A stretch of 60,677 nucleotides of DNA, the filler included, from Squatina squatina (Eukaryota): the NCBI GenBank assembly GCA_031763465.1. It is 4 parts of 4 records of this genome, joined end to end, with 100 filler letters (N's around TTAATTAATTAA, not from the genome) between each part and the next. Parts side by side here need not be neighbours in the genome. Positions count along the whole stretch, not along the records: positions 34,919 to 47,458 come from JARFOE011039009.1; 3 more parts are not named here. One strand, given 5' to 3'. A model generated the notes under the pieces. The model worked only from the letters and a program-made list of their open reading frames with translations. It made no database searches and was not told where the DNA came from. A program made the position numbers and the translations under genes. Shown here one piece after another: positions 13,467 through 60,677 of the stretch (position 1 is the first letter of the stretch; each line of letters starts with the position of its first letter).

Positions 13467-13566
13467 NNNNNNNNNNNNNNNNNNNNNNNNNNNNNNNNNN
13501 NNNNNNNNNNTTAATTAATTAANNNNNNNNNNNNNNNNNNNNNNNNNNNNNNNNNNNNNNNNNNNN
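13467..13566. other. Artificial scaffold spacer N44-TTAATTAATTAA-N44
   Basis: Six-frame stop linker at 13511-13522 inside Ns; identical at 34863 and 47503. Confidence 0.95.
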
Positions 13567-24567: not shown

Positions 24568-26085
24568 GGGGGTGAAATTCGGTAGCGTCTCTGTAAAGGC
24601 GTTCCAAAAAGTTTTTGCGTCTTAATCGCATCTGGCCACGGAGGCGCTAGAATGTTGCGAAATTCTTTTTTTTAAAGTTTTTTTGGAGAGGCGCTTTCTG
24701 GAGGCACTAAATCGGCACTTAAGGCGTGATGTGCAGAGGCAAGCTGCTGCCTGCAGAGGCAAGGTGCACACACAACAGTCCAGCCCCTGACTTCACATTG
24801 CAGCAAATGACTTCAGATTGAAGGAGATGAATGCAGATTACAGGAACAAATGCCATACTGAGGGAGTTGCCACCAGAGTGAAGCCAATTGTAAGTCATTG
24901 CAGTAGTACAGTCATCAGTCACAGAGATCAGAGAACACTGTTGTACGGTTCCTTCTAGGAGATCACAGTCTGAAGGAGCCACACTCCCAGATCGGACAGC
25001 TCACTCAGTGCATGACAGCCGACTCAAGAAACTCACAGCTGAGTCAGTGGAGGATCTCAGGGGAATCAGTGCTTAATGAAGTTACTTCTTTCAGCTGAAA
25101 CACATTGTTGTCCAATTACTTGCCCACTTCCTTCATTCACATAAAAGCATGGGTACTTACCACTGTAGCTGCTGCCTTGGTCACATGCACTCCGTACCAT
25201 AGCAGCAGCAAGAAGGAGCCGAAGGTTTACCGATGATACGCTCAAGGTACTTGTCTGTGCCGTCGAAGCCAGGAGGGAACTGCTATACCCTCCTTCAGGG
25301 AGGAGTGCTGGCCTTGCATTGAGACTTGGCAGATGCATTGGCAAAGGTGCCAGAGAGCATTGACTGTTTGATTCAGAGCATAGAGGAGTCGAGCTCCAGG
25401 ATTGTGGAAGGCTCTGCTCAAGCCTTCGAGCATCACGAACATGCGCGAGCTGCTGGGCTCCCAAAAGCACACTCGGGATCCAGTTGCCATGAGTCACTTC
25501 ATGCACGATGTAGCATCATCCATTGGTGCCCTGGCTGATGGCGTCCATTGGTTAACTTCATCAATGGAGTCAGTGTTTGACCACATGGATGCTGCGAATG
25601 ATCTCGCGCAATCACAACATGATGTGATGCAGAGGATTGCTATTACCCTGGAGTCTCACCTCCAGCACAATCAATCAATGACAGATACCATGGCTTCTGC
25701 GTCCACGACGGTGGACCAGGGCTCCGACGTCTGCATCAATACGCAACAATCTGCTGTCCCGCTAACTGATGCGGAAAAGGTGGCGATGACCTGGGGGAGT
25801 GGCATTGCTGCAGTGGAGTCTGGAGGTGCTCTCCACTCTCAGGATGAGAGCATTCAGGCGTCTGCCATTACCACTCCGCCATTACAGATGCCCATGGTTG
25901 GCACTCAGGCAGCCGAGAGTGCTGCTGCACCTCCTGTGGTGGAGCAGTCTGAAGCAGGCCCATCCAGGGCCAAGACTACTCGAAGGCGTCCAAAGAAAAG
26001 ACCTGTCGAAACCCTTTCAACCTCGGAGCAGCCTTCCAGTAGTCCTGCTGCAGCCACACGGGAGTCAGTGAGAAGAAGCATCGTG
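24568..26085 (+). mobile_element. Harbinger-like element with a Myb/SANT-like accessory ORF remnant
   Basis: At about 25200-25300, RRSRRFTDDTLKVLVCAVEARRELLYP resembles the N-terminus of Myb_DNA-bind_5; a helical/low-complexity ORF follows from 25402. The 5' 400 bp are homologous to 60303-60677. Confidence 0.6.
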
Positions 26086-26346
26086 GATAGCACATATAGT
26101 GAGCTGGTCACACCGCAGGTAAAGACTGCACAGGCAGAAAAGGGATGGGTGACCACCACGCAGAGCAGTAGACGCAGGCAGGTAGAGCAGGAGTACCCTG
26201 TGGCCATCCCCCTCTCAAACAGATATACCGCTTTGGGGGAGATGGCTTATCAGGGGAAGGCAGCAGCAGCCAAGTTTGTGACACTGCGGGTGGCTCTGCT
26301 GCACAGGAAGGGAGGAAAAAGCATGGAAGGTCTATGGTGATAGGGG
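26085..26346 (+). mobile_element. CR1 LINE ORF1 fragment
   Basis: VDSTYSELVTPQVK...WVTT...PVAIPLSNRYTAL, typical of CR1 ORF1 upstream of the esterase domain. Confidence 0.6.
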
Positions 26347-34818: not shown

Positions 34819-34918
34819 NNNNNNNNNNNNNNNNNNNNNNNNNNNNNNNNNNNNNNNNNNNNTTAATTAATTAANNNNNNNNNNNNNNNNNNNNNNNNNN
34901 NNNNNNNNNNNNNNNNNN
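34819..34918. other. Artificial scaffold spacer
   Basis: TTAATTAATTAA at 34863-34874 within Ns. Confidence 0.95.
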
Positions 34919-34994
34919 CATATTGAATGGCGGTGCAGGCTCGAAGGGCCTAATGGCCTACTCCTGCACCTATTTTCTATGTTTCTATGTTTCT
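34919..34994 (+). mobile_element. CR1-type LINE/SINE 3' tail abutting the gag remnant
   Basis: ggctcgaagggcctaatggcctactcctgcacc followed by a (tatgtttc)n tail. Confidence 0.75.
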
Positions 34995-36399
34995 AGATCA
35001 GACAGTAGAGAAACATTTACAGACTGTCAGTGCATTGGAGAAGGTGTTGGAAAACAGCAAGCAAAAGACGGCATGGCTTGAAAGTGAAGCCATCCAAATT
35101 AAAATTAAAATGGAAGAAATGAGTGATAATTGGATGCTGGAGAAAAACATGATTCAATGTACCTGCGCTTTATTAAATAAGAAGAATGAAAAATTGGAAT
35201 CCCGAAATGCTGAACTGGAAAAGTGCATGAGTCAGTCTCAGCTGCAGGTACAGGACCTTAAAGCTGCATGCCAGGTTATGCAGGAACAAAAACAAGATCA
35301 GGCGGGGAAGGGAGATCACTCTGAGTATCAGAAAGAAATCACAGAACTAAAAAGATTGGTGCCTGTAAAGAAGGGAGCGATCTGCCTGATGCAGGGGGAT
35401 GTGGAGTCAGGCACAGGAGAGGGACCCCATCAGGATGATGGGATAGAATGCGCTACTTCTCGACCCCCGCCGCAGAGTCTGGATTGCGCGCCCGTATGTG
35501 TAATAACTCAGACCAAATATAGGGCCCCCTCCAACAGCTCGGGGAGGAACGTGCCCTGGATAGTACCTTTTTGGTCTCCCACTCCCTCGACCAGTTAAAG
35601 GAATTGGCACGAGATTTGGGAAAAATAACCTTTGGACACTCTCCTGACGGAAACTTTCTAGCGGCAGAGCAGATTGTGGGGATACAAAATTTAGATGCGG
35701 GTGAGCATGAAAAACTGTTGCTCTTTGCTCTAGATCCAGAAATATATGGAGCCTTAGATCGAGAAAGCAAGAGGGGATGAGGCACGGTGGAAGCCCTTAT
35801 GGCTGCTATATGGAGGGCAGTAGGAATGGAGAGAGGAAACCCTTTTCGGGAAGGCGAAATGACAAAACAAAAGCCAGGTGGACACCCGATTGTCTTTCCA
35901 GACCGACTGTGGCCTGTCTATAATCAATGTCAGGGTGGTCAGTTGGACAGGGCAGACCTAAATGGGATACCCCTAACACACTGGCTAAGAACACTTAGCC
36001 AAATGGCACACGAGGTACAAAAGGGAGTGAGTGTCTGGTATGATCCCGAAGATGTCAACATCACTGAAGCACGGGTGTTATGAAAATGCACCCTGGCTCA
36101 TACTCAGATCCCAATTCAAAAGGCGAATTGTAACATAATGGAAGAGAAGCCCAAACAAAACATGGAAGAAGGAGGGAACACCAGTCTGGAGGGATGGAAA
36201 AGGAGGATTAGACGGGAAAAAGAACCTGACATGCTATAGCTGTGGTGGGAAAGGACACTTTGCTCGGGAGTGCAGGAAACCAAAGAAAGGGGAAAAATCA
36301 GATACGGGGGAAACCGAGGAGTTAGAAAAGGCATTGGGACTGATAATGGAAAAGATCATGAAAAAGAGAGTAAAGAAGGGTCTGGCACCTTGCACTTGA
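34995..36399 (+). pseudogene. gag: ERV gag remnant: coiled coil, capsid-like region, CCHC zinc knuckle
   Basis: Heptad-rich ORF to 35598, then same-frame ORFs 35571-35780 and 35787-36083 (KLLLFALDP...KQKPGGHPIVFPDRLW). CYSCGGKGHFAREC at 36232-36273 and TGA at 36397-36399. At least two frameshifts and two stops. Confidence 0.85.
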
Positions 36400-37217
36400 T
36401 AACCGGTTTCAGGTAGCTATAGTTTTTTGTTTTTAGTGTGAGTGTTAATGTCTTTTATAAAGCATGTATCAGTGTTTAAAACTTTGCAGTATTTTTCTTG
36501 TGTGTGACAGCTCAGCTGATAAAAACGATCTGCCTGTGAACTAATTCTGCCCCCGAGTTCTGTTCCACAAAGCTGAAGGTCATTAACCCTTTGTGGTCTT
36601 GTCTTGAATGTTGGACCAATGCGTTTGTTTGTTTGGGTCTGTCTGTGTATGCATACACATGTATCTGTTTCTTTTGTGTAAAATGTGGGTATATGTTTAT
36701 TCAATGTGAAACCTGATTTTCTAACAGTTATGTTCAGTATTTGTTCACAGTTATTTGGAAAGACCTCCGAAAAGTCACCCCCTGTTTGTGTTTTTGATTG
36801 GACTAATATAATTGGTTTGCATTGAATTGAGGTTAATTGTAACCTATTAAAAACCTGACTTTCATCAATGGCCAAGGTGAAACTCTGGTTATTGTAACTT
36901 TTCCTTCCGAAAAAACCCACATTTGATTGTTTGGGAAAGTTTTTTTTTAAATCTACATGAACCGACGTGATGGCATCAGAGAATTTTTTGCTCCGCCTTC
37001 TTAGAAACCTACATAGAAATGACAGCTGTTGTTTTAAAGCAGCAGGAAATCACCTTTGTATTGAACGGTGCAGAATTTTTTTTGATATTATTAAAATTTA
37101 AGTTTCTCAATTTGAGTGACCACGTGCCAGAAAGAAAATTATGATTTGACAAAATTAACCCCTTGGGTTCTTAAACAGAGCCACAATGGATTCTCTGTTT
37201 TCTTTTGTTTTAAGCAG

Positions 37218-39110
37218 GTGCCAGAATAGAATCGAGAGGAATTGATGCAGCTTGCAGCAGGAGACAAGGGTCTGGGCTCCCGGACCAGAAAACAACAATG
37301 GGAAACCATAAGGGAGACCGCCGTTAACATTGGAGAAGGACACAGGGAAAACAAACTGTGACTAGAGTTTACAAAAACCCAAGAGTGGGAGATAGGGAAC
37401 ACAGGGTTAAGGGTTCCAAATGCTGGAATGATTGCACGACCTTGCGAGTAAATAAGAGGGAATGGGAGGGTACATAAAGTGAAAATAATGCGAGAGGAAG
37501 TGATGAGAGTAACGGGGTAACATGGATGGGAGGCTACACTGAGGGCATGACCCAGGAAGAGGTTGAGGTTTGCAGAACACCTCTCTGGTTAACAGCTTAG
37601 ATGTAGCCACATTAGATCAGGAAGTCAGGAGAATGAGAAATCGTTTGAAGGAAATCGTGGTGGGAAGCGGAGATAAGACAACATAGGGTACCCAAGTCAC
37701 CTATGTTGGGAAAGGAGAGTGTTGCATCACTACTCAGGAGAAAGAGTTTGTATACGGCCAAAACTTTTCATGTCCCACCAATCAAACGGCATTTTAACCA
37801 CCGAAGGGGTGTATGACAACGTCCGTTTCCACTCAACAGACCAACTTGGTGCACCTGGTAATAATTTTGGTTAACCCAAAAGGCAGAAATTGAGCCTTGT
37901 GAATGACATAATTACCGGAGTAAATACCAGCACTTCACTGTACAATTGACTGGAACTTGTAACTATGAACAGAGAACTTAAGAAAGCAAAACAGCAACTA
38001 GAGGACATTTTATCCAGTGAAAATGATTGGTCACATGACAAAGTACTGCATGATCAATGAGTAATGATAGATTTGGGATATATCTTTAACCCATTATATG
38101 ATATGTTAAATCAATTTGAACGATAGGAAAAGGTGAACCTAAATGCCAGTGAGGCACAACAGAAGATGGGTCTCTGCACACTATATGGGTCATGGTTGGT
38201 AGAACAGGCGAGGGGTAATTTAGAACAGGTACAGAACAAGCAGGTGCCTATGTGGTTGACAAATGACAAATTGGTAGACCTATCAAGATATCCAGTCCAG
38301 GCTCCCATGTGTGACCGAAGACCACTGATAGAGGTCACCACAGTAGACCACTCTTGAAGGAGCCTGGAGAAACCGGCAATAGGGTTAATTTTACACTACC
38401 CAGTGTTGCCCCCTAGGGCCAAAAAGAAATGGCTGTACCAGGTAGAAAATATTGGAATCAGACAAGGAGATTCCATGATTGGATATAGAAGCCTGGCTCC
38501 CTATGTGGTAGGATCTGATCACATGAGTCCAACTGATCTAGCTGGATGTGTAAAAAAAGGCTTCAGTGGTTCTGTGTCCCAATAAGATCAGTGATCATAT
38601 CACTACTCAATGTGGATACACAGGAGGGAACGCCACATGCCAAATGTGGATGGAACTGACAGGGACATGAACCCATGTGGCATATAGAGGGAATAACATC
38701 TATTGGAGAACAGCCACCGAGGGGGTAATTGAGGCAGGACAGGTCCAGTGTCCTCTGATCAACAGCACCTTCTGTGTGCAACCAGAACATACCCTCAAAA
38801 TCAGAGACCTGTATTTGATACCAATGCTGGATAGTGAACAACAGCAAAAGGAGCAGGTCCAAGACTCACTGGAGATAGATTGGGAACTATATCTCCACCG
38901 AGCTTACAACATCCATAATCTCCCTGAGGCAGATAAATAAGCCCTGGTAAGGGCTACGAAAGGGCTAAGACAATATGAGAAATGAATATGGGTATTGCAG
39001 CAAAGTAATGCAGATAACACAATCAACATCCAGGCTATCATTATTATTCCCTGGTATGAATCGACCTGGAATTTAACCTTGGTTCATATCTGCCCTCAAA
39101 ATGAGCTGTA
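37218..39110 (+). pseudogene. env: ERV env remnant, lokiretrovirus-like class I fusion glycoprotein
   Basis: Strong acceptor ends at 37217. Cys-rich GECCITT...FSCP; basic site KRQK(L) at 37878-37892, then SLVNDIITGVNTSTSLYN and a heptad; CTLYGSWLVEQARGNLEQVQNKQVPMWL; LYQVENIG; QCPLINSTFC; PWYESTW. Multiple stops. Family assignment is from recall. Confidence 0.7.
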
Positions 39111-39134
39111 ACGTAAAAGTAATTTTCAAGGTAC

Positions 39135-39146
39135 AAGAGGGAGGAG
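39135..39146 (+). promoter_or_regulatory. Polypurine tract
   Basis: AAGAGGGAGGAG, followed after 2 nt by TGTAAGG (39149), directly downstream of env. Confidence 0.65.
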
Positions 39147-39148
39147 TC

Positions 39149-39995
39149 TGTAAGGTAGAAACAACTACAAAAGGGTTTAAAAGAAACCTTTACTTGGACA
39201 CAACTTAAAAAGGCAGAGGGAAAATGGCTTACAACCACCGAATCGAAAAATGGTCTCGAGAGCTGACCTCGAGTTTTGCAGCTGTATGGACAGAGAATGG
39301 ACAGTAAATAACCAGAGATAAGGGAACTCAGTCTTGATGACTAACATAAGCATAACGACTTGTTTTGGGGAGCGTTTGGGAGTGTTTGATAGTGTGTTGG
39401 TGTGAGAGAGACCCAGGCTTTTGTTGTGCAGGTCGTGACCTAAAATTCTGGAGCACTGGAACAATTGGGATATCAACAATATTTCAGGATGGGAGGGAGA
39501 GGGAGAGCAAATTTGGACAATAAAGGTAAGGTAATTGCAGACTAGAGAGCGCTCTTGGAGATCCTCTCTTTGAGAGCACTCAAACATGAGCAGGAGAGAG
39601 AAAGAGAGAGATCACATGCTCTAACAACAGGCTGTGGTATTCTGGCAGCAGCCCAGAATTTTAGGAACCCCGAGTTGGTCACCGGGAAGATACTACAAAC
39701 TCTCACCTGACCAGTGGAGTTGTGAGTATTAATAGGGATCTTGTGGTATTTTACTTTTACATAAACACTGTTTTCAATCTGTAAAGCTGTATATTAATTT
39801 AGTAATAATCTGTAACATCTCAACAGTGTGTATAAGTTTGACAATTAGTGTTAGTGTTAGAAATTAGTGTATTAGTGTTAGAAACAATGAAAACCACTTA
39901 AACATAACACTGTGCAGTCAAGTATGCCTACCACATATAAGTCTATAGAAATACCTGCAGACACACCCCCTTGAGCCCCAGAATAAAAGGGGGTA
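39149..39995 (+). mobile_element. Putative 3' LTR; right end uncertain, abutted by a CR1 fragment
   Basis: TG start after the PPT; non-coding; AATAAA at 39982-39987. No 5' LTR in the window to confirm it. Confidence 0.5.
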
Positions 39996-40000
39996 CCTCC

Positions 40001-40690
40001 AGGTCTGTAGTTCCCTGTTTTCTCTCTCCCTCCTTTCTTAAATAGTGGGGTTACATTTGCTACCCTCCAATCTGCAGGAACCGTTCTAGAATCTATTGAA
40101 TTTTGGAAAATGACAACCAATGCATCCACTATCTCTATAGCCACCTCTTTCAAAACCCTGGGATGTAGATCATTGGGTTCTTGGGATTTATTGACTTTCA
40201 GACCCATTAATTTCCCTGGTACTATTTTTTTTACTAACACTGATTTCTTTCAGTTCCTCATTCTTGCCAGACCCTTGGTTCTCTAGTATTTCCGGGAGGT
40301 TTTTTCTGTCTTCTTCCATGAAGACAGACACAAAGTATTTATTTAATTTCTCTGCCATTTCCTTATTCCCCATTTTAAATCTCCTATCTCTGTCTGTAAG
40401 GTACCCACATTTGCCTTCGCTAGTCTTTTCCTTTTTACATACCTATAGAAGCTTTTACAGTCTGTTTTTATGTTTCTTGCCAGTTTACTCTCATATTCTA
40501 TTTTCCCTTTCTTGTTCAATTCCTTGGTTCTCCTTTGCTGAATTTTAAAATGCTCCCAATCCTCAGGCTTACTTCTTTTTCTGGCAACTTTATAAGCCTC
40601 TTCTTTTAACGTAATACTATTTTAAATTTCTTTTGTTAGCCACAATTGGACCACTTTTCTTGTTGGGTTTTTGTGCCTTAATGGAATATC
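40001..40690 (-). mobile_element. CR1 LINE ORF2 fragment
   Basis: GNKEMAEKLNKYFVSVF and LHPRVLKEVA...PADWRVANVTPLFKKGGREKTGNYRP. Confidence 0.9.
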
Positions 40691-41254
40691 TATTGGTTTC
40701 AAGTTATGTAATGTACTGCGGTCAGGATGTTGTTGGAGTTAAGATACGGATCAGTCATGATCTAACTGAATGGCAAAACTGGCCCGACGGGCTGAGTGGC
40801 TCACTCCTGTTCCTATGTTCCTACCTCATTAACTAATGAAGCTTATTTGTTAAATGAAAACATGTAAGAGTAGAGACACAAAGCACAGGACTCCTGTAAA
40901 TAAGCCAGAACCAAGTGATCTTGGAAAAAAAACATCAGTTGAAGCAAAGGGAATTTTAAGTGCAGGTCAGAAAACAGGGCAAACCTGAAACATTAACTCT
41001 GTTTCTCTCTCCACAGATACTTCCTGATCTACTGAGCATTTCCAGCATTTTCTTTTATTTAAGCACAAGACGGAATAGAAGGCGAATGACTAATGTCGAG
41101 AAAAGCCAGTTGTCCTAAGATTAAGGAGCAACGATTGTGAGCAGGGGCTACTTGCTGGTGGTGTTGAGCATACTCCCCTGGCAGTGGAGAGACGATGATC
41201 TAGAAGGTGGCCCTCCCAGGGTGAGGCTCGTCCATTGCACCTCGGGTGTGCTGA

Positions 41255-42615
41255 AACAACAATGAAAACTTGTATTTATACAGTGCCTTTAACATAGTAA
41301 AATGTCCCAAGGTGCTTCACAGGAGGGTTATCAAACAAAATTTGACACTGAGCCACATAAGGAGATATTAGAGCAGATAATTTAAGGCTTGGACAAAGAG
41401 GTAGGTTTTAAGGAGCGTCTTAAAGGAGGAAAGGGATGTAAAGAGGCGGAGAGGTTTAGGGAGGGAATTCCAGAGCTTAGGGCCCAGGTTGCCAATGGCT
41501 GAGCGATTAAAATCAGGGATGCTCAAGAGGGCGGAATTGGAAGAGTGCAGATATCTCGGAGTGTTGTAGGCGCTGGAGAAGGTTACAGAGATAGGGAGGG
41601 GCGAGGCCATGAAGGGATTTGAAAATGAGGATGAGAATTTTAAAATCGAGGTGGTGCTTAACCGGGAGCCAATGTAGGTCAGCGAGTACAGGGGCAATGG
41701 GCGAACTGGACTTGGTGCGAGTTAGGACACGGGCAGCTGAGTTTTAGATGAGCTTAAGTTTATGGAGGGTGGAAGATGGGATGTCAGCTAGGGGAGCATT
41801 GGAATAATCGAGTCTCGAGATAACAAAGGCATGGATGACGGTTTCCGCAGTGGATGAGCTGAGGCAAGGGCGGAGGCGAGCAGTGTTACAGAGATGGAAA
41901 TAGGTGGTCTTAGTTATGGCGCAGATATGTGGTCAGAAGCTCAATTCAGGGTCAGATATGACACCAAGGTTGCGAACAGTCTGGTTCAGCCTCTGACAGA
42001 AGTTGGGGAGAGGGATGGAGTCAGTGGCTCGGGAACGGGGTTTGTGGCGGGGACCAAAAACAATGGCTTCAGTCTTCCCAATATTTAGTTGGAGGAAATT
42101 TGTGCTCATCTAGCACTGGATGTCAGACAAGCAGTCTGACAACTTAGAGCCCATGGAGGGGTCGAGAGAGGTGGTTGTGAGGTAGAGCTGAGTGTCGTCA
42201 GAGTACATGTGGAAACTGAAACTGTGTTTTTCGATGATGTCGCAGCAAGTTAATGAGAAATAGGAGAGGGCCAAGGATAGATCCTTGGGGGACACCAGAG
42301 GTAACGGTGCGGGAGTGGGAAATGAAGCCATTGCAGGTGATTCTCTGGCTACGACTGAATAGATGGTAATGGGACCAGGCACGTGCAGCCCCATCCAGCT
42401 GAACGATGGTGGAGAGGCGTTGGAGAAGAATGGAGTGGTCAACCGTGTCAAAGGCTTCAGACAGGTTGAGAAGGATGAGGAGGGATAGTTTACCACGGCT
42501 GCAGTCATCTGTGACTTTGACAAGAGCTGTTTCAGTATTGTGGCAGGGGCGGAAACATGATTGGAGGGATTCAAACATGGAGTTCCGGGAAAGATGGCCA
42601 TGGATTTGGGAAGTC
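41255..42615 (-). mobile_element. L2 LINE, 5'-truncated, with reverse transcriptase remnant
   Basis: QSCFRPCHNTETALVKV, AFDTVDHSILLQRL, SGVPQGSILGPLLF and HMYSDDTQLY (YADD box); 3' tail near 41260. Confidence 0.9.
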
Positions 42616-43099
42616 CCTGAATGTGGGATACTTGACTGCAAAATGGTACTGGGGGACTGTGTTCGCGCTCTCCCCTGGCTTATTACACAACAATGACAGA
42701 CTGAATAGATTCACTTTTGTCCTTGTTTTTTCCGTACTTTGGTCCTTCTCACGATGATCAACTTTGCTCAAGTGCAGTGTTGAGTACAAGCAGATGGAGA
42801 TGGAGTGTAAATAGCAGTGTCCGGGCGATGGAAGGAGGTGCAGCACAAAATCAAAGCCTATATTATCAACATGATACGTCTGTGTTGTCCTGTAAAGCTT
42901 ACAAATCCCCGAGAGCAGCCATGCAATGTACTGCGAGCAGCACCTGCAGTGGGCGTGCACTTAGCATTCTTCCCCACCTCCCCCTCGCCCCCACTCCTGT
43001 CGTTTGTGGGTGAAGGGAGTTCTCACCCACCCTAAACACAAGCCTGGCAAATAGGCATCTCCTCCGCACAGTGCCCAGGTTTACAGTGTGTTGCCGGAT

Positions 43100-43475
43100 T
43101 CCTGTGGGAAGCTGTGTGGAGAGGGCTGTGTGTGGGATCTGTGGGGGGGGTGGAATGTGGCGGGCGGCTGTGGGAGGGGGGATGTTGAGGGGGGCGAAGG
43201 CTGTGGTGGGTCTGTGGGGCAGCTGTATGTGGGGAGGCTGTGGGGGAGCTGCAGGGGACTGTGGGGGGGGCTGCGGTGGGGGAATGTGGTGGGGGGCTGT
43301 ATTGGGGGGAGCTGTGTGGGGTGCTCTGGTGGGGACTGTGGAGGGGGGCTGTCGGGGGAAGATGTGGTGGGGGGCTGTGTGTGGTGAGAGGCTGTGGGGT
43401 GGGGGGCTGTGGTGGGGGCTGTGTTGTGGCGGCTGTGGTGGGGGGGCTGTAGGGGGCTGTTTGAGGGGCTGTAGT
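43100..43475 (+). repeat. G-rich degenerate minisatellite (GGGGGCTGTG-like units)
   Basis: Many imperfect gggg(g)ctgtg units visible in the sequence. Confidence 0.85.
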
Positions 43476-44401
43476 GACGGCTATCTCTGGGCGAGTAGTA
43501 TTTGTTGGAATGATATTGGTCCAGTGTCATTAATGGGAGAGAGTTGAAATGGGGCCGTAATGTTGGTGGTATTGGGAGAGGGAAGGAAGAAGTGATTGTG
43601 GAAGAGAGCAGCGGAGAGAAAGTGAAGGGGAGGAATGTGGAGAGAAAGAGATGGCGTGAAGCTGGAAAGTAAAAGAGCGGTGCGAGGCTGAGCAGAGGTG
43701 ATTGTGAGGCTGTTGCGAGTGCCTGTGTGTTTGAGAAACTGGATGAAGGGGAGAGTGTCAGCAGGGATTGTAAAGGCTGGCGTGGTGCTTTGTGAGCCTG
43801 GGCACAGTGCAGAGGAGACGGCTAGAGTTTGGAGTGGATGAGTGTGGGCAGATGAAGATGGAAGTGAGGTGGAAGCTTAATGGGAATGGGCGAGGTGAGG
43901 AAGAAGATAATGTTGAAGAAAGAAACAGAGAAGAGTGAACTTGCAGAGTAAAGGAACATCAAAATATATGTTAGAGAAAGGAAAACACAGTGGATGCTGG
44001 AAATCTGAAATATAAACAGAAAATGCTGGAAATATTCAGCAGGTGGAGAAACAGAGATAACGTTTGTCGTCAGATATTTTAGCAATTGGTTTTGCGTGGG
44101 GTTTGGGCAGTGTTGGCTGTTCACTCATTCCGCACTCCTGACATATGTTTTGGATTAATAATTGTTACCTAATTTCTTCAGATTTTATTAAGAAACTCCA
44201 TGCAGTTCATTATTGTGTTACTGTTCATTGTGGCTCTGCACATACCCCAGAGAACACTTCTGTCCCCCCTCTGCTCCGTTTTATTCTCTTTTCATTTTAC
44301 ACATATCAGAAAGTTCAATCCTGCTATCAGCCGAACATTTGATTATTTCCTGTGATATGCTACAACAATCACAGGCAGGACAAGCATTGCTTAAAGATAT
44401 T

Positions 44402-45174
44402 AGGGGCGGACAATTCATGTTTTAGGCATTTCTAGCACTAAGCGCCGAATTTCACACTGGAAATGGGACTCTGAAAATTTGCCTTGAACCCTCCAATTAG
44501 CCACTGTAGATTTGGAACGTTCAAACACGTGCAAACGTTAATGTTAAGGGGCCCATACTGAACTGATCTATTCATGGTGTGCATGCAAATTCCAGTTTGT
44601 TTCCAACCTCACAGCCCACTTAATTCCACAGTTTGCTTCCAACCTCCGTTGACTTAAGTGTTTCCAACTTCCTGATAGCTGACTTAATTGCTTCCAGCTG
44701 CATGTCTCCCACATACAGCCCTGCTCACTGCTCAGATCACACACCCCTGCTCATTGCTCAGTTCACACAGCAGGCAGGGTGGTCCATCCATCCATCCATC
44801 CGTCCATCCCCTCCATCTGTCCATCCGTCCATCCATCCATCCATCGTGAAGTAATACAATGGAGCCTAATCTGACTTGCGCTGGATTCTCTGAGCTGAGG
44901 CCCGTGTCACTGCTGAAAAAAGCAGGTGTTGTCACTGCTGGATTTAGTGCACACTGACACTGCTGAATTTCAGACAGGTGGCTATTTTGGGCGCCGTGTG
45001 CACTTATGACATCATAGCGCCGCGATTAAGTTACAGCTAGCGCTTGGAGCCTCAGGGGCCTTGTGCCCATTTTGCACCATCACGTACGGGACCCGAATTT
45101 TGTGCCTGCGTTTTCATGCCGAAAATGTATGTACGCCCGTTTCGCGCTGATTTTACCCGCAAATTGGGCGCCCT
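44402..45174. mobile_element. MITE-like element with imperfect TIRs and an internal (CCAT)n at 44783-44845
   Basis: AGGGGCGGACAATT at 44402 and AATTGGGCGCCCT at 45162-45174; TA at both ends. Confidence 0.5.
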
Positions 45175-45321
45175 AGGATTTTAGACGACATATGTATACA
45201 GCAGTTTTCTTGGATAAATGGCATAAGTTTATAACATAAGTTTCCACGGTAACAGTCTAGTTAGAGAAAGGCTGTGATAAACCTCTGGTCTGTGAGGTGG
45301 GGCATGAAGGATTAGAGATTT

Positions 45322-46557
45322 AGGGCGCCCAATTCGTGGTTTTGTTTAGCGTTAAAATGGCATTAAATAGGCGCAAAGTGCTTAACGCCGACTTATAGTG
45401 TTAAGCTTTTCAGCGCAAAATTTGTCTCCCGTTAACACCAGCGCTAAACGGGCGCTAACTGCTTTAGGCCACAATCGCAAGTCTTAGCGTTAGAGTGTCC
45501 TGTTGATGTCATCAGTGGGCGCAATGCCCAAAATGGACTAACGCCATAGAATTCAACAAGGCTACTGTGCCTTAACTTTAGTGGTGTCAATGCCCCATTT
45601 TTTGGGCGTTGACACAGCTCAACTCTGAACTTTGAGTGTTATAGAAAGTTCTGGAACTGGGCTTCGTTATAACTTTATCTCCCGGCCCCACCTTGATCAA
45701 ATCATGTGACTTTTGACTTTAAAGCCTCACTCTGACTCAGTGCTGACTTCCTTTTGGTTTCATCTGAGCTTTGACTATCTTGAAGATTTCGGCCCCAGAC
45801 GCCATGGCTGATGCACTCCCGGTCGAATGGATACTCATACAACATCATGTGCAAAATCAGATGAACAGAGGAGAACTTCAAGACAGGCAGCTGGATATGG
45901 GGGCAGAGGTAAATGAGGTCAGGGCTGAGGAAGAAGCAGATGCTCAACCAGACCAACCACAACAACCACCTGACCTCCCAAAGCCAGCTGCACCACTGGT
46001 GGCACAGCCCAGGCCACTGCAGCCTCCTCCTAGTGCCCTCTGCGCCTGCCCACCCCACTGTGTGCCGGGGGGGCACTCCCTCCAGAATTGGAGGCGGCCT
46101 CCCCATCCCAATCAGCGTCAGTGGTGCAGGCTACCACCGGTTTCCCTGTCGTAGCCAAGGGCTCTTAAAGGCGCGTGTCCTGTGTCGGCAGCCACTATCT
46201 TTACGCATTGGCCACGTCAATGTCGGCCAATGTCTGGCGGCCGATCTTCCCCGTGGAATTCCCCCCCCACCACCACGACTTTGCCGGAACCCCTGAAAAA
46301 AATTCTAATTTACCTGATGGCAGAGTGGACCGTCGATCCACCTCTTCGGTGAAAGCCTGCGGCCCTTGCCCTTAAGGGAGGGGGCAGAGCAGCGGTGTAA
46401 CCAGGAAGTGACATGATATTGGCCAAGTCACTGCTGAGTCAATGCTGATTTTGCATTGCCGCGCTACGCTGGCCTGAAACAGCTTCAATGGGGCCAAGGC
46501 CGCGACACAGTGCCTCGTTGTTAGTGGTCCGAATGTTGCAGCCCAATTGGGGCCCCT
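45322..46557. mobile_element. Non-autonomous DNA transposon with TIRs
   Basis: AGGGCGCCCAATT at 45322-45334 and AATTGGGGCCCCT at 46545-46557. Internal 45943-46030 is homologous to 2879-2965. Confidence 0.6.
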
Positions 46558-46569
46558 ATAACCCTATCT

Positions 46570-46985
46570 GTCAGAGCAGCTGAGATTGTTCTCCTTACAG
46601 CAGAGAAGGTTAGGAGGAGAGTTAATAGAGGAGTTCAAAATGATGAAGGGATTTGTTGGGGAGAAATGGAGAAACCGTTTGTAATGAGAGAAGGGCCAGT
46701 GATCAGAGGACACTGATTTAAGGTGATTGGCAAAAGAGCCAGGGGGCAGGGAGAATTTGTTTTTAATGCAGCGATTTATAATGAACTGGAACGCGCTGCC
46801 TGCAAACGGAGTGGAAGCAGATTCAATAGTAACTTTCAAAAGGGAATTGGAGAAATATTTGAATTGGAGAAAACTGCAGGGCTTTGGGGAAAAAGCAGGG
46901 AGAGTGGAACTAATTGGATTGCTCTTCAAATAGCCAGCACTGGCAGGATGGGCTGAATGGCCTCCTATTGTGGTGTAAGAGTCTA
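46570..46985 (+). mobile_element. CR1 LINE 3' fragment
   Basis: FMQRFIMNWNALP..VEADSIVTFKRELEKYL and a gggctgaatggcctcct tail. Confidence 0.8.
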
Positions 46986-47458
46986 TATGGCCAAAATTGA
47001 CCCTTTTTATAGCCTTGTTAGCACCTCCATGGGGCGCTAAAGGGGCGTTAAGTAATTTCACCCAGGGTGGGGTGGGCACTATTGCATCCTGGGAAATTGC
47101 CTGGGTGGTCGCGGAGGAACTGGGTCATTATTGCCCCATCCCGTGATCAGCGCCCCGACCCAGGACCGGCGATGATGTCATCACCATGGGCGCCGACTCA
47201 TCACCCCGCGGCGACCCACTTGCACCCCGCAGCGGAATATGCCCCACGGGGCTTCAAGCTGGCTCTCAGCGGTACCCAGGCAGTCCCTTAAAGGGGAGGC
47301 CTTTAGCACCCCAGGCTGCCAGCTTTTATCTACCAAAACTCGCTTCCAAAGCCACATCTCTTTTCTCAGCAACTGTCTCCGGCTCCGACTTAATCCACGT
47401 GGATTCCAACTGAAATTCCACCCTTCATGTTTTGGATCCACCCAGGATTACAGATATC

Positions 47459-47558
47459 NNNNNNNNNNNNNNNNNNNNNNNNNNNNNNNNNNNNNNNNNN
47501 NNTTAATTAATTAANNNNNNNNNNNNNNNNNNNNNNNNNNNNNNNNNNNNNNNNNNNN
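47459..47558. other. Artificial scaffold spacer
   Basis: TTAATTAATTAA at 47503-47514 within Ns. Confidence 0.95.
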
Positions 47559-49767: not shown

Positions 49768-50446
49768 AGACCAGAAGCACACAAACCACTCAGGAACATT
49801 GTCGGACTCAGGCAGAAATTCCATGTCCAGCCTCCCGACTCACAGCACGGGACACAGTTGCGGGACAGACCATGTTGGTGCCCCGACCGGTCTTAACAGA
49901 TTTGGAGGCTCAGTTCAGCACATTGGTCAGGCAGCTGCTTCTCTTGGTGGTATCTTCAGCAATGTCAGCAGCACATCTACCTCAGATCGTGGGCACTGCC
50001 CAACCAGCAAAAGCATGAACTTCAACCAGACCCAAGCTCTGTCGCAATGTGCTTCTTGCATCCGCTCACCCCTTTCCACCGACAAATGTGTTATTCGGGA
50101 TCTTGAGCAGAAACTGGCGGGGAGAGAAGCAGAATTGCAGGGGCTCCAGCAAGCCCTGAACGAGAAGGAAACGGGTGCCCTTCGCACTTGCGAGGAGAAG
50201 CAGAGGCACTGCGAGCAGGGGGCGGATAGCCTTCAGCAGAGGCGCAGCGCTAAAATGAAGTCCGCCCCTCAGAAGGCCCATAGAACCCACCAGCTCCAAG
50301 TCATCCATCTCCAGCAAGAGAAGAAGCAGCTCGAGGATGACTTTGCCCAAATTCTCCAAGAGCGGGACAAACTGAACGCCAGATGCAAATCCTATGAAAG
50401 GGAACAAACTGAAATGGCTCCAAGACTGGAAGAAACTAAATGGGAG
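49768..50446 (+). CDS. LZTS1: LZTS1 large coding exon, 5' end in gap
   Basis: SGTLSDSGRNSMSSLPTHST, RFGGS, SCIRSPLSTD, LQQEKKQL and LEETKWE followed by donor gtaggt at 50447. Closest to LZTS1 among recalled paralogs. Confidence 0.85.
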
Positions 50447-50782
50447 GTAGGTCCACTGGCACTTGTAGGGAGAGAAAGAAAATTAACCTCATCGCAACGG
50501 CAACATTGAATATAGAGTCGTATGCAAACTCCTGCCACAATGGTTGCGAGGTCGAATTATTGTTCTCCACTTCTCTATGAAATTAGTAAAGCTCCATGCA
50601 GTTTGGGACTTTATAAATTAAGTACCTTTAAAACAGAAGAAGTTCATCAAAAAGCTTTAACAGAATCGATGGAAATGTTAGANNNNNNNNNNNNNNNNNN
50701 NNNNNNNNNNNNNNNNNNNNNNNNNNNNNNNNNNNNNNNNNNNNNNNNNNNNNNNNNNNNNNNNNNNNNNNNNNNNNNNNNN

Positions 50783-51858
50783 TAGCCAGGAACCCCAGGC
50801 TGCAGACCCTCACCAATGTCTTCATCACCTCGCTGGCCTGTGCAGACCTCATCATGGGGGTCTTTGTGGTGCCCCTGGGGGCCACCATGGTGGTGACCCA
50901 ACAGTGGCTGCTGGGCTCGCCTTTCTGCGAGTTCTGGACCTCCGTGGATGTCCTGTGCGTGACTGCCAGCATCGAGACCCTGTGTGTCATTGCCATCGAC
51001 AGGTACATCGCCATCACCTCGCCTCTCAGGTACCAGAGCCTGCTCACCAAAGCCAGAGCCAGGGCCATCGTCTGCCTGGTCTGGGCCATCTCAGCCCTCA
51101 TCTCCTTCCTGCCCATCATGAACCACTGGTGGGAGGACTGGGACGCCAGCTCCCGCCGCTGTTACAAGGACCCCACCTGCTGTGACTTCGTGACCAACTG
51201 GCCTTACGCCATCCTGTCCTCCACCATCTCCTTCTACATCCCGCTGGTCATCATGTTCCTCCTCTACTCCAAGGTCTTCAGCGTGGCCAAGAAGCAGGTC
51301 GAGAAGATGGAGAAGAACAAGTCGAGGTTCTGCGAGAGCCACCAGGCAGCCAGCAAGCCCGCCAGGAGGAGACCTTCCAAACTCCTGGCTCTGAAAGACC
51401 ACAAGGCTCTGAAGACACTGGGCATCATCATGGGGACCTTCACCCTGTGCTGGTTGCCCTTCTTCCTGGCCAATATCGTGAACGCCGTGTCCAGGAAGCT
51501 CATCCCCAGGGTGCTGTTCCTCTCCTGCAACTGGCTGGGCTATGTCAACTCTGGCTTCAACCCTTTCATCTACTGCAGGAGCTCCGACTTCAGGAAAGCC
51601 TTCAAGGAGCTGCTCTGCTTCGGTGGCCAAGCCCAGGAGCCCAGGCTGCCAGCAGCAGGAGGAGAAGGGGGAGCCGGTGGCTCTTGCTCGTGTTGTCCAG
51701 GTGGCCTGGGGTCTCCGGACCCCTCCTGGAGGAGCCCAGGGACCCAGGAGCCGGCTGGACAATGTGCCGGCATGCCAGAGAGCATGCCAGCAAAGGAGAT
51801 TAAGGCTCCTGGAGGGGCGATCGGCCGCCAGACATCAGCCGACAATATAGTCACCTGA
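50783..51858 (+). CDS. ADRB3: Beta-adrenergic receptor, most likely beta-3; N-terminus and TM1 in gap
   Basis: [85 protein letters not shown] and linkage to LZTS1/GFRA2 favour ADRB3 over ADRB1 or ADRB2. Confidence 0.8.
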
Positions 51859-58930: not shown

Positions 58931-59117
58931 TTTAATAGAAGGGGTTTAATGGCGAATAAACGCTATTTCTACTAACATCACCAAGCAGTGATGTCAGCGC
59001 ACTAACTGCCGACGCAGAACATGCCATTTCCTTCACTTCACACGCGCAGCAAAGTGTGAGACTGTGCGCTGCCCCCGTGACAGATGCTGGACACAGGGTC
59101 CCGACTGCCCCCCTTAC

Positions 59118-59463
59118 CTGCACACGTGGTCAGTTTTGCAGGTCTGATGGAGCGCCAGGCAGTTTAGCTTCTCCTTGTCCTCGTACGAGCACACGGGCAC
59201 AATGGTCTGGCGGCGCCTCTCCGCACAGGCCGGGTTGTTGCAGGAGCAGAAGAGCAGCCGGTAGCTGTACTCCGCCGGCACCCGGTCAAAGAACTGCCTC
59301 AGGGACTTGTGGCACTTTCGGCGGTTGCAGGTGTCGGTGGGCGAGGTGCGCTTGACGCAGGTGGAGATGTAGTTCGAGCGGTACCTTTTGCAGGTGTCGT
59401 TCAGGTTGCAGGCCTTGGCAGCATCCAAACACTGATTGCCTCGAGCTCCAGTGGGTTCCATTC
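59118..59463 (-). CDS. GFRA2: GDNF family receptor alpha, domain-2 exon, most likely GFRA2
   Basis: ttgcag acceptor and gtaagg donor; [14 protein letters not shown]...[30 protein letters not shown]...[20 protein letters not shown]...TDHVCR. Confidence 0.8.
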
Positions 59464-60302
59464 CTGCAACACAACAATAAAGAGGGGAAGGAAAAAAAAA
59501 TTGGGCTTCACACCAGACTTAGTGGAGCAAGCTAANNNNNNNNNNNNNNNNNNNNNNNNNNNNNNNNNNNNNNNNNNNNNNNNNNNNNNNNNNNNNNNNN
59601 NNNNNNNNNNNNNNNNNNNNNNNNNNNNNNNNNNNGTTAATATGAACTTTATAAGAAATTTCTAAACTTCAATATTATATTGAGGGAGTTCTGATTTAAG
59701 TTCTACAAGGCCTGATCATTGACTTGCCGTCTCTCGGGACTTAAATCTGGGTCTTAGTACCACTGTCAGTAAAACATTCCTTCTATACTTGATGATCTAG
59801 CAGATGTATATAGATAAAAATATAAGTATAGGGTTCTGTATCAACTCGTAAACCATGTTAGACGCCAACTGTGGTGATTGTTACGATCCCAGCCCCTTTG
59901 GGACTATCCCGGATCAGGATTAATTCTCAGGCGTTCACTCTCAATCGGAGGTTGAGATTGTCAAATCTTTAAGACACTGAATGGGTCTGACGTCTGGTCT
60001 TTCTCTCTCCAAGGGAAAGGGATCACCCGAGAATATTACCATCCTCCAGATGGCGCTTTTAGCAAGTTCCAGCCAGATTGTAATATCCCAGATATTGTGA
60101 GGGAGCGGGGGTCTCTCCTCAGTAATGCAACTCTTCACCAAAAGAGTGTACGGAGCTTGGGTTCACGAGTTAGTATTACAGAAGACTATACGGGACAATA
60201 TAAAACTATACAGATGTTTAATGATGAAACAATTTGCAATTTACAGCTGGTAAGACCAGCAATGGCAACATTAACAGTTTCTTAAAAAGGTAAAAATCAT
60301 AG

Positions 60303-60677
60303 CAGGTGACATTCGGTAGCGTTCTGGTGTAGGTGTTGCAAACATTTTTAGCGTCTTAATCGCAGTGAAGGCATATTTGGATGCGAAATTCGGCATTTCT
60401 TTAACTTTTTTCCAGAGTGACACTGTTTGGAGGTGCTAACTGCTCAGTGGAGGCGCTGACTGCAGAGGAGAGCTGCTGACTGCAGAGGCGAGGCACTGAT
60501 ACAACAGTCCAGCCCTTTACGGCACAGTGAAGCAAAAGACTTCAGACTCAAGGAGCTGAATGCAGATTCGAGGAAATAATGCCAGGCTGAAGGAGTTTGC
60601 ACCAGAGTGAAGTGAATCAGACCAGACTATAGGAGAACAGTGCTGAGTAACAGAGATCAGACAAGACTGTAGGAGTA
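60303..60677 (+). mobile_element. 5' end of a second copy of the 24568 element, running off the window
   Basis: attcggtagcgt, tgcagaggc, acaacagtccagccc, gacttcaga, tgaatgcagatt and caccagagtgaag are shared in the same order with 24568-24900. Confidence 0.75.

Follow-up and report, generated by a model that had tools for sequence, protein, structure and literature searches.

Among the long terminal repeat (LTR) elements of fish-like vertebrates, lokiretroviruses possess a Gag with an N-terminal coiled coil ('smc') and a capsid, and an F-like Env with an early basic cleavage site, whose gene is directly preceded by an acceptor-like sequence (PMC7947760). Their capsid is Ty3/MuLV-like, their pol comprises protease, reverse transcriptase, tether, RNase H and integrase, and their Env, similar to the F proteins of Mononegavirales, has a signal peptide, an RXKR site, a fusion peptide, a coiled coil and a transmembrane segment. 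In the published lamprey lokiretrovirus consensus, gag and the protease downstream of it share an open reading frame (ORF), and about 80 nt separate the pol stop from the start of env. In addition, the zebrafish BHIKHARI elements Bik-1 and Bik-2 are pol-less relatives of these viruses, with a coiled-coil and capsid Gag, and are mobilised in trans (PMC12067270). Here, we analyzed a stretch of 60,677 nucleotides of the angelshark Squatina squatina (hereafter, the window), in which an earlier note made from the sequence had proposed a gag-env endogenous element lacking pol. We observed a decayed element with a gag gene related to uncharacterised shark proteins, a T-rich spacer in which pol was undetected, an env region and a putative 3' LTR. 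We consider it somewhat more probable than the converse that this element is a non-autonomous derivative, which would have lost pol before its insertion and used the enzymes of a helper. Its features, with the independent E-value (iE) of the profile matches, are as follows.

34996..35490, plus strand: coiled-coil part of gag, truncated at the 5' end (165 codons, no stop; shark Gag profile iE 8.8e-7)
35487..36167, plus strand: capsid part of gag, read in a different frame (227 codons interrupted by 3 stops; shark Gag profile iE 7.6e-47)
36148..36399, plus strand: gag nucleocapsid, short tail and stop codon (shark Gag profile iE 1.7e-9)
36400..37217, plus strand: T-rich spacer, pol undetected (818 nt, ending in a pyrimidine tract and AG)
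36417..37049, minus strand: stop-free antisense frame of 210 codons without ATG, in a sequence of 35% GC
37218..37560, plus strand: segment with a weak assignment, most likely to the N-terminus of a first env gene (env-A), resembling the start of the shark Env protein P0004
37561..37797, plus strand: env-A remnant, in which the start of the heptad region runs in frame into a strand located much later, with about 220 profile positions missing
37803..39105, plus strand: second env gene (env-B), F-like ectodomain (shark Env profile iE 6e-37 and 6e-7)
39131..39146, plus strand: purine tract before the LTR (14 of 16 purines), a polypurine tract (PPT) by position
39149..40001, plus strand: putative 3' LTR of 853 nt (TG...CA, imperfect terminal inverted repeat, AATAAA at 39982)

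The shark Gag profile recognised the coiled coil, the capsid and the nucleocapsid in this order, across two frameshifts. For the phmmer searches, single frames with X at the stops were compared to 1.84 billion representatives (E ≤ 0.001), and 20 matches were obtained, 12 for the capsid part (E down to 1e-21, 28-38% identity) and eight for the env part. Nineteen of them were looked up: seven were unnamed and the 12 named ones were all uncharacterised shark proteins, from six species, with no teleost or lamprey protein among the named matches; taken by themselves, these proteins point to a shark host. A single CCHC knuckle was located at 36229-36279 (Pfam zf-CCHC, E 2.1e-6), and the TGA stop at 36397-36399 lies 39 codons past this knuckle, as in the homologue P0009. 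The gag described in the earlier note is thus retained for the stop, the knuckle and a coiled-coil-like part, but the gene is decayed, with its two frameshifts, in-frame stops and about 70 N-terminal codons gone; by tblastn, the homologue P0006 aligns to it only from its residue 72. The coiled-coil part gave only weak coiled-coil-type Pfam matches. In sequence searches of the PDB, the capsid had no match and the Gag profile retrieved zinc knuckles and coiled coils only. A word-index search for homologues of the Env and Gag parts, with 838 and 1231 candidates respectively, was empty. In the Gag tree, the Gag of the window was placed in no starred clade. None of the Gag-type proteins (13 from the searches and two cluster members) continues into Pol, the longest being 653 amino acids. 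Two RefSeq models of Scyliorhinus torazame, P0009 and P0023, are apparently full-length and Gag-only; they are 82% identical, lie on different large contigs and have several isoform accessions, and are possibly expressed or co-opted like BHIKHARI.

Downstream of gag, about 800 bp of T-rich DNA without any N gap had been reported, and we confirmed both points: the 818-nt spacer contains 38% T versus 14-22% in the gag and env parts, and no N is present between 34919 and 47458. The T content climbs within about 25 nt of the gag stop, and the T level of the spacer was reached by two of 155 segments of the same length across the window, the spacer itself included. Pfam detected no family, pol included, in the six spacer frames and three frames downstream, and a motif scan for protease, reverse transcriptase (RT) and integrase inside the spacer was empty. 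Pol homology inside 36400-37217, which the earlier note had named as evidence that would speak against it, was not found by Pfam in six frames or by phmmer in one; its claim that no pol motif is visible holds for the spacer and has to be tempered by a short integrase-end-like motif further downstream, at 37383. The splice-acceptor-like site at 37217 ties for the best pyrimidine tract of the 176 YAG sites in the element. A splice-donor-like site was also noticed at 36410-36419 (plus strand), 11 nt past the gag stop, among 17 such matches across the element; given this site, the spacer could by itself constitute an intron. RNA folding gave no z below -1.4 in 15 windows of the spacer, and none below -1.6 in 29 windows of the spacer and LTR. 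Neither a target-site-like direct repeat nor poly(A) was found at the spacer flanks, nor any repeat at the gag-spacer-env junctions.

The env-like region announced in the earlier note was confirmed by the shark Env profile, but as two deleted paralogues and not as one gene. From its sequence, the region is best read as the remnants of two old paralogous env genes, both with large deletions. The two env-A pieces match positions 230-259 and 481-514 of the profile and are singly weak (iE 0.34 and 0.089); combined, they reach 17.1 bits, a score attained by none of 2000 shuffles (maximum 6.4) and none of 2370 host frames (maximum 5.1), and hhalign gave the remnant an E of 0.0004. Env-B is better preserved, with phmmer E down to 6e-22 for eight proteins. 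It presents one frameshift, eight stops and a non-canonical basic site, and its F2 part is shortened, with about 27 codons before the basic site versus 63-65 in the homologues. No transmembrane segment was detected in env-B (best 19-residue hydropathy 1.16). The proposal that this element kept its entry genes is therefore not supported for the present copy, since large deletions affect both of its env genes and neither retains a transmembrane segment. The two genes share 9 of 29 and 10 of 35 residues in the compared pieces, and 7 of 29 and 9 of 35 third codon positions. Since the third positions match at chance level, env-A is an old paralogue and not the product of a local duplication; a local tandem duplication, which we had considered, was rejected on this basis and because self-BLAST gave no match. 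Upstream, the start of 37218..37560 matches residues 34-57 of P0004 at a level reached by 6 of 5000 shuffles and 13 of 3171 host frames, in a search space narrowed post hoc. An assignment of 37218-37565 to the F2 subunit of env-A was unsupported (test not significant, best z 0.6 for that frame), and a PDB search of 37217-37597 gave nothing significant.

Concerning the type of this Env, an F-type protein is likely from sequence comparison. The best Atlas clusters for P0004 were Baculo_F and Gypsy env, with scores of 0.92 for Baculo_F and 0.90 for Fusion_gly, and a recognition value of 1580 that is weak, being below the tool's mark of 2300. Pfam detected neither Fusion_gly (PF00523) nor another Env family in the window and the eight homologues, and the PDB sequence search had no match for Env. 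An R-x-K/R-R site is present at the expected place in five of the eight Env homologues, the remainder being fragments or models without the site. In the four longest homologues, the stretch after the basic site measures 279-434 residues, in contrast to the short transmembrane subunit of the gamma/epsilon type. This latter type, whose presence the earlier note had listed as contradicting its proposal, was rejected: the CX6CC and immunosuppressive motifs were found in none of the eight homologues and none of the three window frames, with no TLV_coat match. The shark Env matches form three clades, and env-B groups with P0019 (98/94, on only 83 columns). In the clade of P0004 and P0012, the F2-like part is preceded by an additional N-terminal region rich in cysteine, without Pfam match.

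At the 3' end, the predicted PPT is present as a purine tract, but it is one of 13 runs of at least 11 purines in the element and is designated by position only. The LTR does start with TG, at 39149, as had been proposed; its end fits 40001 better than 39995. No second LTR or 5' LTR copy was found in the window, and the 3' LTR therefore stays putative. An imperfect tandem repeat with a 21-nt period (2.9 copies) is visible inside it, at 39828-39884 on the plus strand.

We compared this element with the described systems. Its coiled-coil and capsid Gag, its F-like Env and the acceptor-like sequence immediately ahead of env resemble those of lokiretroviruses; the order of motifs in the Env of Loki-Bsp and of the sharks is alike by eye, with no computed alignment, and the capsids are similar by eye only. 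Unlike lokiretroviruses, the shark element has no detected pol, and it has a CCHC knuckle, two env paralogues and an 818-nt spacer. The published loki Gags, as far as their sequences are given (several are partial), carry LEG after the capsid in 13 of 15 cases and CCHC in none of 15 (PMC7947760), a pattern read by eye and without a formal criterion; in the shark element, LEG is absent after the capsid in the homologue-matching frame, and the string occurs only in a non-matching frame. With an RT-based screen, Wang and Han found lokiretroviruses in none of six chondrichthyan genomes (PMC7947760), and the Repbase-derived RT list in the accessible part of a PNAS supplement contains 25 Loki entries. 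The loki-negative set includes, at the species level, three species whose proteins carry the shark Gag or Env. None of the 25 Loki entries bears the suffix that we take to be the one of skate, a suffix present on many ERV1 entries. Because this copy has no RT, because its Gag has a CCHC knuckle and because the six chondrichthyan genomes were negative, membership of the lokiretroviruses is not established, and the lokiretrovirus type put forward in the earlier note is reduced to a resemblance.

The other pol-less families resemble the element in part. BHIKHARI differs in that Bik-2 lacks both pol and env, Bik-1 is a single ORF with a glycine-rich C-terminus in place of the zinc knuckle, and both are young and multi-copy (PMC12067270). 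The chicken ENS-1/ERNI family is also a non-autonomous LTR family with a coiled-coil and capsid Gag, which shows that a Gag of this shape also occurs outside lokiretroviruses; the family is related to ERV-L, via the RT of its partner ENS-3, and an F-like env is not reported in the accessible part of that account (PMC12067270). The Athila gag+env families of Arabidopsis share LTRs, gag, env, the lack of pol and an inferred trans mobilisation, but they are plant Ty3/gypsy elements with intact ORFs under purifying selection and an env-like gene of unproven relation (PMC2410132). Errantiviruses have an F-type Env like the shark element, but they possess pol, and the authors who described them found no intact vertebrate homologues (bioRxiv 10.1101/2023.10.26.564294). 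Membership of the foamy-like fish endogenous retroviruses (ERVs), defined by a Gag without Cys-His box and by GGGTG at the PPT-LTR junction (PMC5210030), was rejected, as CCHC is present and the junction has no GGGTG.

In the reading that we favor, the family would consist of shark LTR elements whose Gag combines a coiled coil, a capsid and a CCHC knuckle, and which carry in tandem two or more F-like env genes of ancient divergence. The element would be transcribed from its 5' LTR, which would lie outside the contig; the unspliced RNA would give Gag, whose single zinc knuckle would package RNA, and the T-rich spacer would be an intron-like sequence whose acceptor at 37217 would serve a spliced env message. 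Protease, RT and integrase would be supplied in trans by a co-expressed autonomous LTR element, which would use in cis the purine tract and the LTR ends of the present element. Pol would have been gone before the insertion of this copy, the erosion of the env cassette by deletions suggesting that the last rounds were probably germ-cell retrotransposition and not infection by its own Env; post-insertion decay in the LINE (long interspersed nuclear element) would have brought the stops, the frameshifts and the LINE sequence at the 5' end. Several observations argue for this reading: Gag ends at its natural length with the T rise close behind its stop, the spacer is ten times the length of the gap between pol and env in the lamprey consensus and has neither poly(A) nor a target-site-like repeat at its flanks, no Gag-Pol was found among the matches, the loki RT screen was negative in six of six chondrichthyan genomes, and transposing pol-less LTR families are documented in the published accounts (BHIKHARI and ENS-1, PMC12067270; Athila gag+env, PMC2410132). 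Since the protease lies in the gag ORF and the pol-env gap measures only about 80 nt in the lamprey consensus, a chance deletion should usually leave pol ends and not create an 818-nt spacer. This indirect evidence modestly favors a lineage over a random deletion. Weighing in the opposite direction, the element is a single copy in which both the 5' LTR and a target-site duplication are lacking, and a single broken copy cannot show that a whole family is pol-less; its at least three large env deletions and missing anchor designate a deletion-prone copy, and a helper element was not identified. A protein record that comprises Gag alone is no evidence of missing pol, seven of the 15 published loki Gags being themselves separate ORFs (PMC7947760, accessible part), and the Gag profile, run on 6073 proteins of 574-2000 amino acids, returned one match (a Gag of 579 amino acids) and no Gag-Pol but missed three known Gags in this range. 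The negative loki screen is equally explained by a non-loki Pol in the family, the phmmer search covered one of the three spacer frames, and the integrase-end-like six-position pattern at 37383 occurs once in all six window frames.

The main alternative, which is less probable, starts from an ordinary full provirus (gag-pol-env-env): pol would have disappeared from this one copy once inserted, through the same process as the deleted parts of both env genes, the spacer being a long intergenic region of the parent. The at least three large deletions of the env cassette, the heavy decay (CpG observed/expected 0.29-0.45) and the long pol-env stretches reported for fish foamy-like ERVs (PMC5210030, accessible part) are consistent with it, but it needs both breakpoints outside pol, one of them at the gag stop, and Pfam found no pol remnant in six frames. 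The spacer might instead have separated gag and pol in the parent, with 37218-37560 as a scrap of pol left by the deletion and including the integrase end. Foamy viruses express Pol from a spliced message, as such a parent would have done. The pattern at 37383 (segment 37326-37400, plus strand) is unique in the six frames and lies in the frame preferred by the codon model; it was, however, abstracted from published loki integrase ends and loosened after the sequence had been seen, it has no profile, Pfam or PDB support, the codon model is weak and the beginning of this frame aligns with the N-terminus of a shark Env, which together make this explanation very unlikely. We give still less credit to a foreign or antisense coding insert in place of pol. 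The length of the antisense frame was reached in only 1 of 5000 dinucleotide shuffles, and among 77 segments of the same length the others with 210 stop-free codons are GC-rich; yet the frame has no ATG, a flat base use by codon position and no Pfam or Atlas match, it was one of several segments examined, and its codon score was ordinary, being reached by 287 of 1000 stop-free runs in a low-power test (three of five known coding pieces fail to beat the null of this codon-position model). An artefact of the repeat-rich assembly, joining gag and env pieces of different loci, is the least probable of these explanations: the window is fragmented (35 N runs in 60.7 kb) and the element starts 77 nt from the edge of its contig, but no N lies from gag to the LTR, the order and strand of the parts are correct, a coherent acceptor precedes env and the junctions show no repeat.

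The element is located in the N-free contig 34919-47458, and the other features of the window are the following.

34919..34995, plus strand: 3' tail of a LINE-like repeat, with which the contig begins, and an 8-nt tandem repeat at 34970-34995
40002..40249, minus strand: LINE-like coding fragment, its frame broken off at the LTR end
42110-42710, minus strand: disrupted piece of a LINE reverse transcriptase (RVT_1, E 2.4e-10)
6490-6999, plus strand: host exon, bromodomain with acidic tail, from the domain search
49769-50509, plus strand: host exon, coiled coil, from the domain search
50632-51858, plus strand: host exon, seven-transmembrane receptor, from the domain search
59114-59518, minus strand: host exon, GDNF-receptor domain, from the domain search
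13467-13566, 34819-34918 and 47459-47558: artificial spacers (44 N + TTAATTAATTAA + 44 N), besides many gaps of 100 N, the window being assembled from short contigs

The LINE-like tail, which we take to be of CR1 type, and the contig edge at 34919..34995 indicate that the 5' LTR, the leader and the N-terminus of gag were cut off. At the other end, the LINE-like frame breaks at 40001, which suggests an insertion into that LINE, and the element was probably inserted into this minus-strand fragment. Pfam gave no match for the piece 40002..40249, presumably a LINE. From its motifs, we assume that the RT fragment at 42110-42710 is not an LTR-type helper. The host exons with a bromodomain, a seven-transmembrane receptor and a coiled coil are presumably BAZ1B-like, beta-adrenergic-like and LZTS-like, respectively. 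An open frame of 318 codons at 25384-26340 (plus strand) had no convincing Pfam match and adjoins a repeat that recurs at 60305-60670. Rfam returned no match across the window.

The shark family is apparently undescribed: no description of it or of tandem F-like env genes was found in the literature searched, judged mostly from listings, and it is possibly catalogued in Repbase or subscription journals, which were outside the search. Likewise, that literature yielded no case of an LTR element with two diverged fusogen genes. The Gag and F-like Env proteins of these sharks belong to no named family and close a gap in the host range of loki-like elements. If the layout is unique to this copy, the family would still be worth describing, and the lack of pol would be ordinary decay. 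A broader idea, which we regard as unlikely, is that sharks harbor old and widespread satellite retroviruses without polymerase, whose Gag would carry a CCHC knuckle and whose F-like fusion proteins, two or more in tandem, would be paralogous. These viruses would borrow Pol from an unrelated retrovirus, and their fusion proteins would possibly act jointly or use different receptors. If true, this would explain why RT screens found no chondrichthyan lokiretrovirus despite Gag and Env relatives in at least six shark species and three Env clades, surveys of retroviruses keyed on RT being blind to a lineage without RT or with an unexpected one. If many copies share the pol-less layout, the element would represent a vertebrate gag+env satellite comparable to the Athila families of plants.

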